DNA of 4,925 bases from Escherichia coli (GCF_003334255.1 NZ_QOWU01000106.1), one strand, 5' to 3'; counted from the stretch's first letter, positions 1 to 4,925 are shown. Notes: generated by a model not told the origin, from the sequence alone. A program made the numbers and translations.

Positions 1-244
1 CCGGATGCCGCCAGGCAGCCGGGAGCCGAAGGTGCGCCCGGCAGACAGGACAACACTGCAGTAGTCAGAATCAGAGCAGGAAGAAAAAGAGAATAATCAC
101 AGGGAAGGTGATGTGATTTCTGACAGGCCATAACCAGAGAAGGCGGGGGAAAAGAACGGGCGCCGCAGGCGCGCGTTCATCCCCGTTCCTGAAGGGAAAC
201 GACCTTCCTGAAGTCAGGTTGTTCATGCCCGTACAACATCAGCA

Positions 245-350: not shown

Positions 351-509
351 CTACTTACCGGATTCGTAAGCCATGAAAGCCGCCACCTCCCTGTGTCCGT
401 CTCTGTAACGAATCTCGCACAGCGATTTTCGTGTCAGATAAGTGAATATCAACAGTGTGAGACACACGATCAACACACACCAGACAAGGGAACTTCGTGG
501 TAGTTTCAT
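351..509 (-). CDS. hok: Hok toxin (type I toxin-antitoxin, small membrane-depolarising peptide, 52 aa)
   Basis: Manual translation of the minus strand from ATG (complement of 507-509) to TAG (complement of 351-353) gives [52 protein letters not shown]. From memory this matches Hok of plasmid R1 / FlmA of F essentially residue for residue. It has a hydrophobic N-terminal transmembrane segment, lies wholly inside the overlapping mok frame, and sits immediately downstream of psiA as in IncF plasmids. Confidence 0.92.
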
Positions 510-567
510 GGCCTTCTTCTCCTTGCGCAAAGCGCGGTAAGAGGCTATCCTGATGTGGACTAGACAT
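355..567 (-). CDS. mok: Mok (modulation of killing) leader ORF overlapping hok; its translation is coupled to hok translation
   Basis: 70-aa ORF in the track that overlaps the hok CDS in a different frame, the defining arrangement of hok/sok-family loci. ATG at complement of 565-567 with GAGG about 8 nt upstream on the minus strand. Mok has no known independent function. Confidence 0.7.
523..551 (+). promoter_or_regulatory. Candidate sok promoter (-35 TTGCGC, -10 TATCCT, 17-bp spacer), located inside the hok/mok coding region
   Basis: Hexamers read directly from the plus strand; the position gives a transcript of Sok-like length ending at the hairpin/U-tract near 612-623. Match to the sigma-70 consensus is moderate (4/6 and 4/6). 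Confidence 0.4.
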
Positions 568-623
568 AGGGATGCCTCGTGGTGGTTAATGAAAATTAAC
601 TTACTACGGGGCTATCTTCTTTC
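558..623 (+). ncRNA. sok: Sok antisense RNA (about 65 nt), antitoxin of hok; boundaries approximate
   Basis: Plus-strand transcript predicted from a candidate promoter (TTGCGC 523-528, 17-bp spacer, TATCCT 546-551). It is antisense to the mok SD/start region (mok ATG at 565-567). It ends in a long imperfect hairpin (about 574-612, apical stem GUUAAU-GAAA-AUUAAC at 585-600) followed by a U-rich tract (613-623). Length and position match what is known of Sok; the exact 5' and 3' ends are not determined. Confidence 0.55.
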
Positions 624-685
624 TGCCACACAACACGGCAACAAACCACCTTCACGTCATGAGGCAGAAAGCCTCAAGCGCCGGG

Positions 686-788: not shown

Positions 789-1508
789 TCACGCTGCCTC
801 CCGGAGTTTGTTCGGCACCATCCACCGCTCCATCTCACGGACAGCGTGACCGGCCTCTCTTGCTGCAAGACTGGCTTCCGCAATAACCTGCCAGAACGGC
901 ATATCCTGCCACTGCCAGCGTTCCATTCCGGCCAGTGACGGAAAACGCTCGCCCCACTGCCAGAACAGGGTTTCCAGGTCATGCTCTGCCACCCGGTCAC
1001 TCCAGCGTGCATGCCAGCTTCCGACTGTTTCCGGCGAATGGAATGCCAGTTCGATTTCAGCCTGAGCGACCAGCGCCTGGTACGCACGGGCTTTCTGCTC
1101 TGCCTCCCTCGCCTGCTGGCGGCTGTACTTCTGCATGACCAGCGCGGATTTATGGCGACTGCGTTCCCTGACACGAAACCGCACCGACGGGAACAAGCGC
1201 TCTGCTGCATCACCGGGAAGGGGAAGGAGGCAGACCTCGCCCTGTGTTTCAATCAGCACATCGATGGCATACAGCCACTGAAGACGGTTGCCGTGCAGTT
1301 CTTCTGCGGTCAGGGACGGCATGAAAAATCGCAGGTCAGACAGCGATATCCTGCGGCTTCCGTTCAGACAGCGGAAAAACGCACCCGCATACGGATATTC
1401 AGCCAGCGTGTTACCCTGATGGCGGCGTTTTTCGGTCTCCGCCACCGCCCGCCATGCGGCCTGTTGCTCTGTGCTGAGAGGAACCAGTGCCTGTGAACGT
1501 GCGCTCAT
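789..1508 (-). CDS. psiA: PsiA, plasmid SOS inhibition protein A (239 aa)
   Basis: 239-aa ORF beginning [19 protein letters not shown], recognised as PsiA of IncF plasmids. ATG at complement of 1506-1508 is preceded on the minus strand by GGAAGGAGG with a 6-nt spacer. The start overlaps the psiB stop (ATGA). Stop TGA at complement of 789-791. Confidence 0.95.
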
Positions 1509-1939
1509 GCCTGACCTCCTTCCGCCATCAGGATATGAATGATGTCGTTAACGCTGTACCCCTGCGCATCCAGTGACGCCGCCAGTGCCAGTGAATGGCT
1601 GACAGCTTCCGGTGCAAACCGCCGCTGCACCTGAACCACCGCAAACGGCTCACCACCGGCATTCACCAGAACCAGCACCCAGACCTGAGAGACGTCTCCC
1701 GGCGAACATAATGCCAGGTGGAAACGTTCGTGGGCTGGCGTGAAACGAACCTGGACGGGGAAAAAGCCCCCGAACTCACTGCCATACTCGCCATTCATCA
1801 TCCAGTTAGCCGGTGCGTCCACTTCACGCATCACCTCGTGAGTGAGATTACGGCGCATATCGCTTCCCGCAGCACGGATATCTTCATATTCCTGTGCGTT
1901 CATGGACTGCAGGGCATTCAGGGTCAGTTCAGTTTTCAT
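1505..1939 (-). CDS. psiB: PsiB, plasmid SOS inhibition protein B (144 aa); binds RecA and limits SOS induction in the recipient during conjugation
   Basis: ORF translating [32 protein letters not shown]..., recognised as PsiB. The track ORF begins one codon earlier at a GTG (complement of 1940-1942); I call the ATG at complement of 1937-1939, which has AAGGGAGA 7 nt upstream on the minus strand. Confidence 0.95.
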
Positions 1940-1958
1940 CACGGTATCTCCCTTGCTG

Positions 1959-1981
1959 CCGCCCCGTCTCCGGCGGGGCGG
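1959..1981. other. Intercistronic GC-rich hairpin between the ParB-like gene and psiB (stem ccgccccg/cggggcgg, 7-nt loop)
   Basis: Perfect 8-bp inverted repeat 1959-1966 / 1974-1981. It lies between the ParB-like stop (1994-1996) and the psiB SD/start (1939). Confidence 0.45.
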
Positions 1982-1993
1982 TGTGGTTGTTCA

Positions 1994-3952
1994 TCAGGCG
2001 GCATCAGCCAGGTTATCGGTGCGTTCAGTGGCATCTGTCTGTGGATGTGGTGCACACATCCAGCCTGGAACCCAGCGGTTGTCTTTCATATGGTGCTCTG
2101 CATGTTCAGCCGCATCACCTTTCTTCATCTTCTCCGCGTCCCGTGCGGCACCGGACAGTCCGGCCTCATTCAGGGCTGCGATAATCTGCGGCTTTTTCAG
2201 GTGTCCGAAGAAGTTTGCTTTTGTCGGCTGCCACCAGTCGCGCATGTGGAATCCGATAGCGCTTTCCAGCGAGTCAAGCGGACTGCGTGACGTGTGACCA
2301 CACTCACGGGTCTGGACACCGTTAAGGCTGCATGCGGTGCAGAAACTGAGCAGGGATAACAGCACCTCCTGACTGAGGGACAGGAATGTCGTCATGTCCC
2401 GTGACCATCCCTCCGGCAGCAGGGCTGCAAGACGGGATTTTTCTGCCATCAGCGCCATGAATGCGGCACCTTCCTTCCCCGATGGCGCATCGCTGGTCAG
2501 CGAATAATGTTCACATTCCAGGCTGATTTGTGCTGGTTTACTGTACGCCCCGCTGCCAAACACATTCAGGCAGAGCGTCCATGCCAGCAGTGCCAGAGAT
2601 TTGTCCGGCTGCTGCATGAGTGCCGCCTGGACTGCCAGCGTGCGCTCTGAGGACATTTTCGTCAGCAACGGCAGGCTGATTTCCTCCACTGACGCTTTCT
2701 CCTGCACCTGTTCCGTGCGGTCAGCGTCGTCAGTCGCGTCATCTTCACTGCGCAACTGCACACCACGCTGGACACATACGTTGCCATAACGCCAGGACAC
2801 CACCACACCGCTTCCGGCACGTATCTCCGGCGTCCACGCTCTGACCTTCGCCATGCAGCGCATCAGCTTCATTTCTGCTTCCAGCAGGTCGGATTCCTCA
2901 CACTGGTTTTCCAGCGCGTCGTAACGCGTCATCAGTTCGTTCAGGCGTTCGTCTTCCGCCTCCGTCAGCACCGCTTCCGGCTCCGGCAGACAGCGGTATG
3001 TTCCGGCATCCTCACGGCACTCACCGACAGGCTCCATGCGCCCGGCGCACCATTCCCAGCCTTCGGCTTCCCGAAGGTGTTCAGCGACAGCCTGGAGTTT
3101 TTCCAGCAGGGCGGCATCGAGCGCCACGCGGTCGACATAACCGTCCCCGTCATCGCTGAACAAATCGGTGCGCAGTTCGTCTGGCGAGAAGGCATCAGCC
3201 CCCACGAAGCGGAATTTACTGTTCCCAGCCACCGCCACTTCACTTTCGGTCACCAGACGACGAATGGTCTGTACTTCCGGTTTACCGCCCCATCCCGACT
3301 GACAGGCGGCTTCAAACACCTGCACCTGACGCGCGGTGTCGTTCTCCAGCGCCAGCGCCTGACAGTGTTCGGTGGTGATGCGGTCTTCTGCCAGCGCATC
3401 GAGGATGACAGGCGCAAGGTCAGCCAGTTTCAGCATTCGCTGAACGTGGCGGGGTGAATAGCCCAGCAAATCACCGATGTGTGCAGGTGTTTTGCCTTCC
3501 TGCGCCATTGCGCGGAATCCGGCAATCTGTTCGGCAGGGTGCATATCCCGACGATGACCGTTCTCGGTCATTGATGCGGCAGTCGCCAGCTCCTGCGGAA
3601 TAATTTTTACGCGGACAGGCCAGTCAGCCGGAATGATGTCACGCTCTGCCAGCATGTTGAGTGCTGCCAGTCGGCGACCACCTGCGGCGACACCGTAACG
3701 GTCACCTGGCAGGGCATGAACAACCAGATTCTGCAGCAGGCCGACTCCCTTAATGGAATCAGCCAGTTCACTGACGGACTCCGCAGAATACGGCACCGTG
3801 CGCACATTCAGCGGTGATTTAATCAGTGAATCCAGCGGCACGCTCACTTCCTCCGTCTGCGCCAGCAGGGCAGACAGTGCAGTTTCCTGCGTTTTTACAG
3901 ATTTACGGCTTGCTTTGCGGGTGGTTTCTGGTTCACACTTCGTTACAGGCAT
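1994..3952 (-). CDS. ParB/Srx N-terminal-domain protein (652 aa) with HTH and a long uncharacterised C-terminal region; leading-region ParB-like protein
   Basis: The N-terminal roughly 200 aa shows ParB N-domain hallmarks: box-I-like LIKSPLNVRT, arginine-rich box-II-like VAAGGRRLAALNMLAE, and a downstream HTH-like segment TPAHIGDLLGYSPRHVQRMLKLADL. The remaining roughly 430 aa has no motif I recognise (no DPPY/NPPY methyltransferase motif, no obvious nuclease motif). Start called at the second ATG (complement of 3950-3952), which has AAGGGG with a 6-nt spacer; the track's first ATG (3958) abuts the SD. Confidence 0.88.
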   Translation of the reverse strand: MPVTKCEPETTRKASRKSVKTQETALSALLAQTEEVSVPLDSLIKSPLNVRTVPYSAESVSELADSIKGVGLLQNLVVHALPGDRYGVAAGGRRLAALNMLAERDIIPADWPVRVKIIPQELATAASMTENGHRRDMHPAEQIAGFRAMAQEGKTPAHIGDLLGYSPRHVQRMLKLADLAPVILDALAEDRITTEHCQALALENDTARQVQVFEAACQSGWGGKPEVQTIRRLVTESEVAVAGNSKFRFVGADAFSPDELRTDLFSDDGDGYVDRVALDAALLEKLQAVAEHLREAEGWEWCAGRMEPVGECREDAGTYRCLPEPEAVLTEAEDERLNELMTRYDALENQCEESDLLEAEMKLMRCMAKVRAWTPEIRAGSGVVVSWRYGNVCVQRGVQLRSEDDATDDADRTEQVQEKASVEEISLPLLTKMSSERTLAVQAALMQQPDKSLALLAWTLCLNVFGSGAYSKPAQISLECEHYSLTSDAPSGKEGAAFMALMAEKSRLAALLPEGWSRDMTTFLSLSQEVLLSLLSFCTACSLNGVQTRECGHTSRSPLDSLESAIGFHMRDWWQPTKANFFGHLKKPQIIAALNEAGLSGAARDAEKMKKGDAAEHAEHHMKDNRWVPGWMCAPHPQTDATERTDNLADAA

Positions 3953-3981
3953 AATCATCCCCTTATAATTGCTTATGTCCT

Positions 3982-4003
3982 GCCGGACGTTCGCGCGTCC
4001 GGC
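3982..4003. other. Intercistronic GC-rich hairpin between the DUF905 gene and the ParB-like gene (stem gccggacg/cgtccggc, 6-nt loop)
   Basis: Perfect 8-bp inverted repeat 3982-3989 / 3996-4003. It lies between the DUF905 stop (4011) and the ParB-like SD/start (3952). Confidence 0.45.
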
Positions 4004-4010
4004 ACCTCTC

Positions 4011-4244
4011 TTACTTAAGAATCCCGAAATCCCTGATGTACCGGTTCATCCAGTACCCGGCACAGTCCTCAAAATTCCAGGAGCGCCAGATCAACGTGCC
4101 ATCCTGACGGACAACCAGGCGAAAATGCGTTCCCTGATCATCCTCGATAAAGACATTCCGGTACTGTGCGGCAACGGCTTCGGCCTGTTTGCGGGTAAAA
4201 GGACCGTCCGGCAGTCCCTGAAGTATTCTGAAATATTCGCTCAT
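4011..4244 (-). CDS. DUF905 family protein (YkfF-like), 77 aa, function unknown
   Basis: Translation [77 protein letters not shown] shares the GPFTRxQAxAV...EDDQGxHFRLVVR...WRxWNFE...NRYIR core with E. coli cryptic-prophage YkfF, as I recall it. The track ORF starts at a GTG (4271); I call the ATG at complement of 4242-4244, preceded by GGAGAG on the minus strand. Confidence 0.8.
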
Positions 4245-4262
4245 CCTCATCTCTCCGGTGAT

Positions 4263-4281
4263 GCCCCGCACTGGACGGGGC
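4263..4281. other. Intercistronic GC-rich hairpin between ssb and the DUF905 gene (stem gccccg/cggggc, 7-nt loop)
   Basis: Perfect 6-bp inverted repeat 4263-4268 / 4276-4281, read directly. It lies between the ssb stop (4300) and the DUF905 SD/start (4244) and is not followed by a U-tract in mRNA sense. Confidence 0.45.
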
Positions 4282-4299
4282 GGTTGTCACTGTCTTTCG

Positions 4300-4827
4300 T
4301 TAGAACGGAATGTCGTCATCGAAGTCATACGCGGGTTCAGACGGCTGCTGAGGCTCCGGCTGCGCGGCCTTACGTCCACGGCCTTTCGTTTTCGCGCCTC
4401 CTTTTTTCGGTTCCGGCTGTGATTCCGGCTGAGGCTGACCGCTGAACTGTTGCGCCTCTTCCGGCTGAGTCTGAGTACCTGCGGCACGTCCCAGCATCTG
4501 CATGGTGCCCGTGGTCTTAACAAGAATTTCGGTGACGTAACGGGTGATACCGTTATCCTCCCAGCTACGGGTGCGAAGCTGACCTTCGATGTAGACCTGC
4601 GCGCCCTTGCGCAGATACTCACCAGCCACTTCCGCGAGCTTGCCGAACAGCACCACGCGATGCCATTCTGTCTGCTCCCGTATCTCCCCCGTCTGTTTGT
4701 CGCGCCAGCTTTCTGACGTGGCCACCTGCAGGTTTGCCACTGCGCCCCCGTTTGGGATGTAACGGACTTCCGGATCTTTTCCCAGACGACCGACAAGAAT
4801 GACCTTGTTAATGCCACGAACTGCCAT
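4300..4827 (-). CDS. ssb: Plasmid-encoded single-stranded DNA-binding protein SSB (175 aa)
   Basis: Translation [48 protein letters not shown]... is a canonical OB-fold SSB N-terminus. The C-terminus has a Gly/Pro/Gln-rich linker and the acidic tip [11 protein letters not shown] at complement of 4825-4827 is preceded on the minus strand by AAGGAGA with a 7-nt spacer. The track's extra 13 N-terminal codons (to 4866) have no SD and are rejected. Stop TAA at complement of 4300-4302. Confidence 0.95.
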
Positions 4828-4925
4828 GATGTGTCTCCTTCTGTTGATGTTTTCAGCCCCCATCATCTGTTGAGTTTCGGGAGCCGCGGTTTTGACGTTT
4901 TGCGGGGACCTGCTCTTTGTTCCCT

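Follow-up and report, generated by a model that had tools for sequence, protein, structure and literature searches.

The 4,925-nt stretch of Escherichia coli DNA analyzed here (the window) is the ssb–yfjA–yfjB–psiB–psiA early operon region of an F-like conjugative plasmid, a locus that is already published and offers nothing new. We are highly confident that it represents an F-like (IncF, MOBF) leading-region segment lying between two class 1 single-stranded DNA (ssDNA) promoter elements of the Frpo/ssiD type, and that its operon is driven by a Frpo2-type element. Earlier work has established the mechanism in F and in IncI1 plasmids; at 92% identity the window is a variant of the F locus, and the main finding admits no novel reading. 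The mechanism is relevant to the establishment of resistance plasmids, in that SOS is suppressed, host defences are countered and the host is reprogrammed within minutes of entry.

Locus identity and gene content

The window is 92.3% identical to F (reference record NC_002483) over 4914 nt, with the same gene order, and many IncF plasmids of E. coli match it at 100% identity. Its flanking context was read from such 100%-identical plasmids, for example NZ_CP023850.1 (L001), rather than from the window's own source; L001 17422-17737 maps to window-equivalent 4874-5189. The plasmid leading region proposed in the original prediction is borne out by at least 5000 matching plasmid records, with 4327 of the best 5000 typed as conjugative, and by the presence of the hallmark genes ssb, psiB and psiA and a hok/flm toxin-antitoxin locus (NCBIfam matches above curated cut-offs; Rfam sok, the sole match in an Rfam scan of the window). 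That the segment is instead a chromosomal island or a degenerate remnant unlinked to a working oriT has next to no probability. The window itself contains no oriT and 379 of the best 5000 matching records are typed as non-mobilizable, yet the 100%-identity matches listed are all plasmid records, all of them carry an extra 548-nt repeat piece at the left, which marks copy 1 of a direct repeat, and the six open reading frames of the window are all intact.

The five operon genes were described correctly from the outset, apart from the starts of psiB and yfjB, which had been placed 3-6 nt off the annotated ATGs, an immaterial shift. They are spaced as predicted, with gaps of 55 nt (ssb-yfjA), 58 nt (yfjA-yfjB) and 54 nt (yfjB-psiB) and a psiB/psiA overlap of 4 nt (ATGA). 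Each is preceded by an AGGAG-type ribosome-binding site: AAGGAG, 7 nt upstream of the ATG, for ssb, GGAGAG..GAGG for yfjA, AAGGGG for yfjB, AAGGGAG for psiB and GGAAGGAGG for psiA. A sequence scan of the minus strand flagged no terminator-like site in any gap between cistrons. The ParB-like gene no longer counts among the uncharacterised genes at this position, YfjB having been renamed HerB in a 2026 preprint (PMC13370423).

Features of the window and their coordinates (L001, NZ_CP023850.1)
Feature	Position	Strand	Evidence or remark
Direct-repeat copy 1, tail	1-86	.	L001 12001-12634; Frpo1-type, drives next operon towards oriT
hok toxin gene	351-509	-	NF007279, 126 bits
hok and hok/sok regulatory region	351-683	-	Downstream of psiA, between the two repeats
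sok	507-683		Rfam RF01794, 88.9 bits
psiA	789-1508	-	NF010258, 422 bits; start overlaps psiB stop
psiB, conjugation SOS inhibitor	1505-1939	-	NF010255 equivalog, 274 bits
GC-rich stem-loop, yfjB-psiB gap	1959-1981	-	RNA fold, 8 bp, gap dG -19.4; identical in F
yfjB, ParB-like protein, 652 aa	1994-3952	-	TIGR00180 ParB domain, 63 bits (cut-off 58)
GC-rich stem-loop, yfjA-yfjB gap	3980-4003	-	9-bp stem invariant in 10 plasmids; loop sequence and length variable
yfjA, DUF905 protein, 77 aa	4011-4244	-	Pfam PF06006, E 4.7e-36; DUF905 annotation in identical plasmid
GC-rich stem-loop, ssb-yfjA gap	4263-4281	-	7 bp; stem conserved across 10 plasmids
ssb (first cistron), plasmid single-stranded-DNA-binding protein	4300-4827	-	NCBIfam NF010292, 366 bits (cut-off 265); ATG start
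ssb upstream region, no sigma-70 consensus	4828-4925	-	Probable transcribed leader
Direct-repeat copy 2, head	4849-4925	.	~630 nt, L001 17397-18030; repeat families D2-D4
Frpo2-type (class 1) hairpin, 5' arm, first 52 nt	4874-4925	+	Remainder beyond window, equivalent 4926-5189

The ends of the window match each other's repeat copy in L001: positions 4849-4925 are 100% identical to L001 12001-12077 (blastn), and positions 1-90 are 96.7% identical to L001 17945-18034. Copies 1 and 2 show a single difference in their first 625 positions, whereas Frpo1 and Frpo2 of F are 81% identical over their alignment. Further, two features of the L001 lineage are absent from F: a third copy of the class 1 repeat, and a DUF3560/SAM-methyltransferase module of 3.3 kb upstream of copy 2.

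Transferred strand and the hairpin upstream of ssb

The 49-nt TraI substrate with nic (PMC5422253) has an exact match on the plus strand at L001 9827-9875, which places nic after L001 9853, 2695 nt to the left of window position 1. In NZ_CP023850.1, traM, traJ and the tra operon as far as traC lie further left of nic, and the leading region adjoins oriT on the side opposite to them. Since the nic sequence is on the plus strand, it is this strand that is transferred, hok side first; oriT had been predicted beyond the left edge in just this orientation. The transferred strand is the template for the five operon genes and hok, all of which are on the minus strand. The annotated genes of L001 from DUF932 to sopA also lie on the minus strand, with the SLT gene adjoining oriT as the sole exception.

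Consensus scans, which can overlook weak or non-canonical promoters, found no sigma-70-like site on either strand of 4828-4925, as anticipated, nor in the 1 kb rightwards of ssb in the identical plasmid, and no minus-strand match from 789 through that same 1 kb. Most likely 4828-4925 is a transcribed leader, which is why no promoter is visible there. These results bear on the possibility that a conventional double-stranded promoter, either internal to the operon or preceding ssb, is the main driver, with the orientation to oriT being incidental. Such a promoter might be of the kind that scans miss, and the hairpin region, read as dsDNA, contains AGGACA-N17-CAGTGA, which may be weakly active. 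We nevertheless consider it very unlikely, given that nearly all leading-region genes share the orientation of the operon, that the main leading-enriched gene classes are all so oriented relative to oriT (PMC11541004), and that leading-region fusion proteins were undetectable in F donors and required Frpo2 to appear in transconjugants (PMC9849209). For F, inactivity of upstream fusions as dsDNA and loss of early expression without the hairpin have already been reported.

The preferred driver, a Frpo2-type element, was found by extending the sequence to the right in the identical plasmid, where the original prediction expected a Frpo-like inverted repeat. A DNA fold of L001 17390-17740 yields a 316-nt imperfect hairpin with its outer pair at L001 17422-17737 (dG -108.1 kcal/mol, z -10.9), and 0 of 100 shuffled sequences fold as well. 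The complement folds at -98.6 kcal/mol, a difference of ~10 kcal/mol, so that folding energy alone fails to single out the strand. The promoter had been expected just beyond the right edge; the -35-like block does lie ~140 nt past it, but the element begins inside the window, the repeat running from 4849 and the 5' arm from 4874 onwards. Strand, entry direction and promoter position had all been deduced correctly from sequence alone.

By the hairpin criterion of Wen et al. (300 nt, -75 kcal/mol), the sites that qualify are just the three class 1 repeats and another near the DNA methylase gene. Between the repeats inside the window no rival ssDNA-promoter hairpin reaches -75 kcal/mol; the best, at 3313-3612 in GC-rich yfjB coding sequence, was rejected at -72.4.

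The hairpin is 93% identical to F Frpo2 (391 columns) and 83.5% identical to F Frpo1 (aligned columns), with a mean column identity of 91% when aligned with both, and it can also be aligned with published ssiD, ColIb, Serratia and insect-metagenome Frpo sequences. In an alignment of 10 sequences, 14 of 44 consensus pairs stay paired despite changes on both sides; as the sequences are mutually related and the count carries no formal significance test, we regard this covariation as supportive. The CCCTGGAC block and its pairing partner are invariant in this alignment. In the 3' arm, TGGACA (5/6 to the -35 consensus) is invariant and TGTATCAG sits within a conserved internal loop. The -10 candidate TGTATC is a poor match to TATAAT (3/6), and spacer length ranges over 17-21 nt in the homologues. 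The exact hexamers at -35 and -10, the start of transcription on the template at window-equivalent 4957-4967 and the F-like behaviour of the present variant are our inferences. Two promoter candidates in the 5' arm, TTGAGA-N17-CATCAC and TTGACG-N18-TTTGTT, were rejected, neither being conserved in the ColIb elements. Samuel et al.'s functional Frpo2-acrIIA4 construct moreover lacks the partner of TTGAGA, as its 3' arm is cut just below the TGGACA...TGTATC segment.

Among known systems, the closest is F Frpo2 (ssp1b) with ssb-yfjA-yfjB-psiB-psiA(-flmC), where genes, order, spacing and orientation to oriT are all the same and the upstream hairpin is 93% identical, with full identity through the ribosome-binding site. 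Differences are a spacer that is 3 nt shorter here and a diverged ssb C-terminal linker and yfjA-yfjB gap. F Frpo1/ssiD, characterised in vitro (Masai and Arai 1997), belongs to the same hairpin family, sharing the AT-rich apex and CCCTGGAC block as well as a lower stem of 97% identity. Its upper stem, however, is only ~79% identical, its -10-like sequence is TGTCTT instead of TGTATC, and it drives ygeB and ygeA, whereas the present element precedes ssb. The class 1 elements ssi1-3 of the IncI1 plasmids ColIb-P9/pESBL share the apex, the -35-like block and, with compensatory changes, the upper-stem geometry, and IncI plasmids, too, carry genes in the order ssb-DUF905-ParB-like. In contrast, the lower stems of ssi1-3 cannot be aligned with the present hairpin, and the relaxase of those plasmids is of the MOBP type, not MOBF. 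Class 2/3 ssDNA promoters, which precede klcA/ardA and M.EcoGIX (Wen et al. 2025), follow the same principle of a transferred-strand hairpin reconstituting a promoter, but lack sequence homology to the element before ssb. None lies inside the window; a candidate site of this type occurs elsewhere in L001, at 25221-25520.

Proposed expression in the recipient

During conjugation, the plus strand would be nicked at oriT, 2.7 kb leftwards, and enter the recipient 5' end first, bringing in hok, psiA, psiB, yfjB, yfjA and ssb in this order. The Frpo2-type element would follow ssb, ~7.6-7.9 kb from nic, and fold as ssDNA into the ~316-nt imperfect hairpin. Its 3' arm, with the AT-rich apex, the invariant -35-resembling CCCTGGACA and TGTATCAG in the conserved internal loop, may serve as the non-template face of the promoter. 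Host RNA polymerase would then initiate on the 5' arm, leave through the base of the hairpin and proceed along the transferred strand towards oriT, producing a single ssb-yfjA-yfjB-psiB-psiA transcript, until complementary-strand synthesis removes the hairpin and thereby switches the promoter off.

For F, Frpo2-dependent early expression in transconjugants has been documented by others, in keeping with the prediction of early expression from a Frpo/ssi-type ssDNA promoter. Without Frpo2, early production of Ssb and YfjA in transconjugants is abolished (Couturier 2023, PMC9849209). RNA-seq showed transcripts of Frpo1- and Frpo2-controlled genes to be enriched in transconjugants (Wen 2025, PMC12672017), and the Frpo2-dependent early expression is transient (PMC9849209, PMC12672017). 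An anti-CRISPR gene under Frpo2 protected the plasmid only when located in the leading region and carried on the strand that is transferred (PMC11541004). Activity solely as ssDNA, early and transiently in recipients, is demonstrated for F (PMC9849209, PMC12672017); for the present locus, the missing dsDNA promoter consensus is consistent with it.

The operon's proteins might also reach the recipient chiefly through the type IV secretion system, with early transcription being secondary. We judge this improbable. Delivery of SSB, ParB2, PsiB and PsiA into recipients by the type IV secretion system of pED208 is reported (PMC8406263), but translocation leaves the strand bias and the conserved hairpin unexplained, and according to Couturier et al. 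(PMC9849209) the quantities found in transconjugants call for Frpo-dependent new synthesis. The two routes may coexist.

A further view holds that the chief role of the hairpin is to prime complementary-strand synthesis as a single-strand initiation site, mRNA being a by-product. Frpo is the same element as ssiD, Frpo/ssiD transcripts prime DNA synthesis in vitro (PMC7690428), and early conversion at psiA and ygeB is rifampicin-sensitive in vivo (bioRxiv 2026.01.09.698686). Still, the hairpin is directly followed by a strong ribosome-binding site and ssb, and protein production is lost on deletion of Frpo2 (PMC9849209), so that we find priming as the main role unlikely. Both functions are documented together and are mutually compatible.

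Stem-loops between cistrons

Separately from the promoter, we observed a conserved GC-rich stem-loop in all eight leading-region intercistronic gaps tested (46-76 nt), three of which are in the window. We found no published account of such leading-region stem-loops in the literature searched. It is a doubtful, though conceivable, notion that they adapt the operons to being transcribed from a template that is single-stranded. If so, they might peel the nascent RNA from the template and so favour translation over a lasting RNA-DNA hybrid; alternatively, they might set stable processed mRNA ends in the short single-stranded phase. In the ssb-yfjA stem, one plasmid (L008) carries a compensatory change from G-C to A-U.

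Gene content and plasmid setting of the operon

The full-length window is 100% identical to many E. coli IncF plasmids and matches at least 5000 plasmid records. A chromosomal or oriT-less setting of the segment is improbable, as 4327 of the 5000 best-matching records were typed as conjugative. Plasmid F has the same gene order, with 92.3% identity over 4914 nt. As extended context we used the identical plasmid NZ_CP023850.1 (L001); subtracting 12548 from an L001 position gives the window position.

All six minus-strand genes have intact open reading frames, each start codon being preceded by an AGGAG-type ribosome-binding site. The five co-directional genes of the original prediction, with short gaps and strong Shine-Dalgarno sites, are borne out by profile matches and by intergenic distances of 55, 58 and 54 nt, with a 4-nt overlap of psiB and psiA. 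On the minus strand, a consensus scan detected no terminator-like sites in the intercistronic gaps and nothing resembling a sigma-70 promoter between psiA and the right edge; in 4828-4925, where no convincing promoter upstream of ssb had been seen originally either, both strands were free of such sites. Gene order, spacing and promoter scan thus confirm the original observation as written; its interpretation, early expression from incoming single-stranded DNA, is supported.

Coordinates of genes, repeats and stem-loops (window positions unless marked L001)
Feature	Position	Strand	Match
hok	351-509	minus	NF007279
hok/sok regulatory RNA	507-683		Rfam
psiA	789-1508	minus	NF010258, 422 bits
psiB	1505-1939	minus	NF010255, 274 bits
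ParB-like yfjB	1994-3952	minus	TIGR00180
DUF905 yfjA	4011-4244	minus	Pfam PF06006, E 4.7e-36
ssb	4300-4827	minus	NF010292, 366 bits
Intercistronic stem-loops	1959-1981, 3980-4003, 4263-4281		
Other stem-loop gaps	L001 18809-18854, 20217-20267, 22144-22189, 23809-23858, 25213-25288		
Class 1 element, copies 1, 2, 3	L001 12001-12634, 17397-18030, 20716-21349		
Second module of the repeats	L001 17740-18030, 12342-12634 (includes window 1-86), 21050-21349		

Among sigma-70-like matches in the window, GTTACA-16-TATAAT (10/12; plus strand, 3942-3969) scores best; it lies across the start codon of yfjB (3950-3952), reads antisense into the gap between yfjA and yfjB and may be fortuitous. Many substitutions and two 6-nt indels separate the strongly diverged C-terminal linker of ssb (4300-4420) from that of F; the acidic tip of the product (...DDIPF) and the hairpin just downstream are conserved. 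YfjB is characterised as HerB in a 2026 preprint (PMC13370423).

Transferred strand and position of oriT

The TraI substrate of Ilangovan et al., a 49-nt ssDNA with 27 nt 5' and 22 nt 3' of nic (PMC5422253), has an identical counterpart at L001 9827-9875 on the plus strand, flanked by traM and SLT. This places nic directly after L001 9853, 2695 nt to the left of window position 1. As predicted, the plus strand is the transferred one, its 5' to 3' direction running rightwards, oriT lies to the left and the hok side enters the recipient first. Since transfer proceeds rightwards from nic, the promoter enters later than the genes under its control.

The tra operon runs leftward from traM, and from DUF932 through sopA all annotated genes are on the minus strand, with SLT beside oriT as the sole exception. 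Samuel et al. showed that leading-region genes generally share one orientation with respect to oriT and that this orientation is functionally important (PMC11541004). As annotated, the reading frame of SLT (orf169; L001 9807-10454), the only plus-strand gene of the leading region, begins far enough upstream to span nic; a start at the internal ATG (L001 9946), which gives exactly 169 aa, is more plausible.

A probable single-stranded DNA promoter upstream of ssb

Three direct copies of a class 1 ssDNA-promoter element, each of ~630 nt, are present in L001; the left end of the window (1-86) lies within copy 1 and its right end (4849-4925) is the beginning of copy 2. The plus strand of copy 2 forms a long imperfect hairpin (outer pair L001 17422-17737; dG −108 kcal/mol with DNA parameters, z −10.9), matched in stability by 0 of 100 shuffles. 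The window contains no more than the first 52 nt of this hairpin (4874-4925), in agreement with the predicted promoter just beyond the right edge. In alignments it is 93% identical to Frpo2, the hairpin promoter upstream of F ssb, and 83.5% to F Frpo1, which a published reference list equates with ssiD. Further alignment with Frpo sequences from ColIb-P9, Serratia and an insect metagenome showed that the upper stem is preserved, with 14 of 44 pairs altered on both sides, and that the 3'-arm block CCCTGGAC and its 5'-arm partner TGTCCnGGG are invariant. When we applied the threshold used by Wen et al. (< −75 kcal/mol in 300-nt windows) to the whole leading region, four sites passed: one near the DNA methylase gene and each of the three class 1 repeats. 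None lay within the window between the repeats.

Transcription of the operon requires the plus strand as template, read from right to left, so that the 3' arm has to supply the non-template face of the promoter. This arm has an AT-rich apex, followed by TGGACA (L001 17613-17618), its first base unpaired, and, 18 nt further on, by TGTATC(AG) (L001 17637-17644), mostly in a conserved internal loop. The double-stranded form reads AGGACA-N17-CAGTGA at these positions, which fits a promoter present only in the hairpin. The candidate placement is supported by a functional construct from Samuel et al. (Frpo2-acrIIA4; PMC11541004), in which the 3' arm stops just below the TGGACA...TGTATC segment. Transcription would start near L001 17505-17515 (window-equivalent 4957-4967), making window 4828-4925 putative leader RNA. 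For the homologous promoters of IncI1, Wen et al. mapped the start sites (PMC12672017).

The operon is unlikely to be driven mainly by a conventional promoter, given the lack of a sigma-70 consensus upstream of ssb in the scan and the finding that deletion of Frpo2 in F abolishes early production of sfGFP fusions in transconjugants (PMC9849209). Leading-region fusions were undetectable in donors (PMC9849209), and Wen et al. found transcripts of Frpo1- and Frpo2-controlled genes of F enriched in transconjugants (PMC12672017). SSB, PsiB and PsiA are indeed translocated by the type IV secretion system (PMC8406263), but this route leaves the anatomy seen in the window unexplained. A priming role of the hairpin is documented as well (PMC7690428; bioRxiv 2026.01.09.698686), but beside transcription, not in its place; the reporter in the 2026 preprint is psiB under “ssp1b/Frpo2”. 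In light of this published work, the early leading-region operon under a hairpin promoter is a correct rediscovery of an already known system.

Promoter repeats and intercistronic stem-loops

In the lineage of the window, a single difference separates copies 1 and 2 over their first 625 positions, whereas the corresponding Frpo1 and Frpo2 of F are ~81% identical in alignment; this near-identity suggests recent gene conversion. The direct repeats bracket the window, with hok/sok between copies 1 and 2, a placement discussed for F by Couturier et al. (PMC9849209), and make the 5.4-kb unit, hok/sok included, a substrate for deletion. In a comparison of F 6255-6643 with L001 17376-17760 and 20695-21080, F Frpo2 looks like a mosaic, its left arm resembling copy 2 and most of its right arm copy 3, which a 3-nt TCA insertion in that arm also follows. 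F lacks the 3.3-kb module of DUF3560 and SAM-methyltransferase genes found between copies 2 and 3, and both features are consistent with recombination between promoter repeats.

A further GC-rich module, ~290 nt long and 96-99% conserved between copies, forms part of each repeat and, with respect to the direction of transcription, precedes the promoter hairpin. As ssDNA it folds moderately well (dG −82, z −3.5); its only annotations are doubtful hypothetical ORFs.

Across the leading-region operons of L001, we surveyed eight intercistronic gaps of 46-76 nt. All eight have the same layout: a stop codon, a GC-rich stem-loop without U tract (stem 7-12 bp), a ribosome-binding site and a start codon. 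Six fold better than dinucleotide shuffles, in contrast to control gaps of the tra operon, where only the traM-traJ gap does so. We found no published description of these stem-loops in the literature searched. Two of the stems, compared across ten IncF/IncI plasmids, are conserved, with loops variable in sequence and length and one compensatory change from G-C to A-U.
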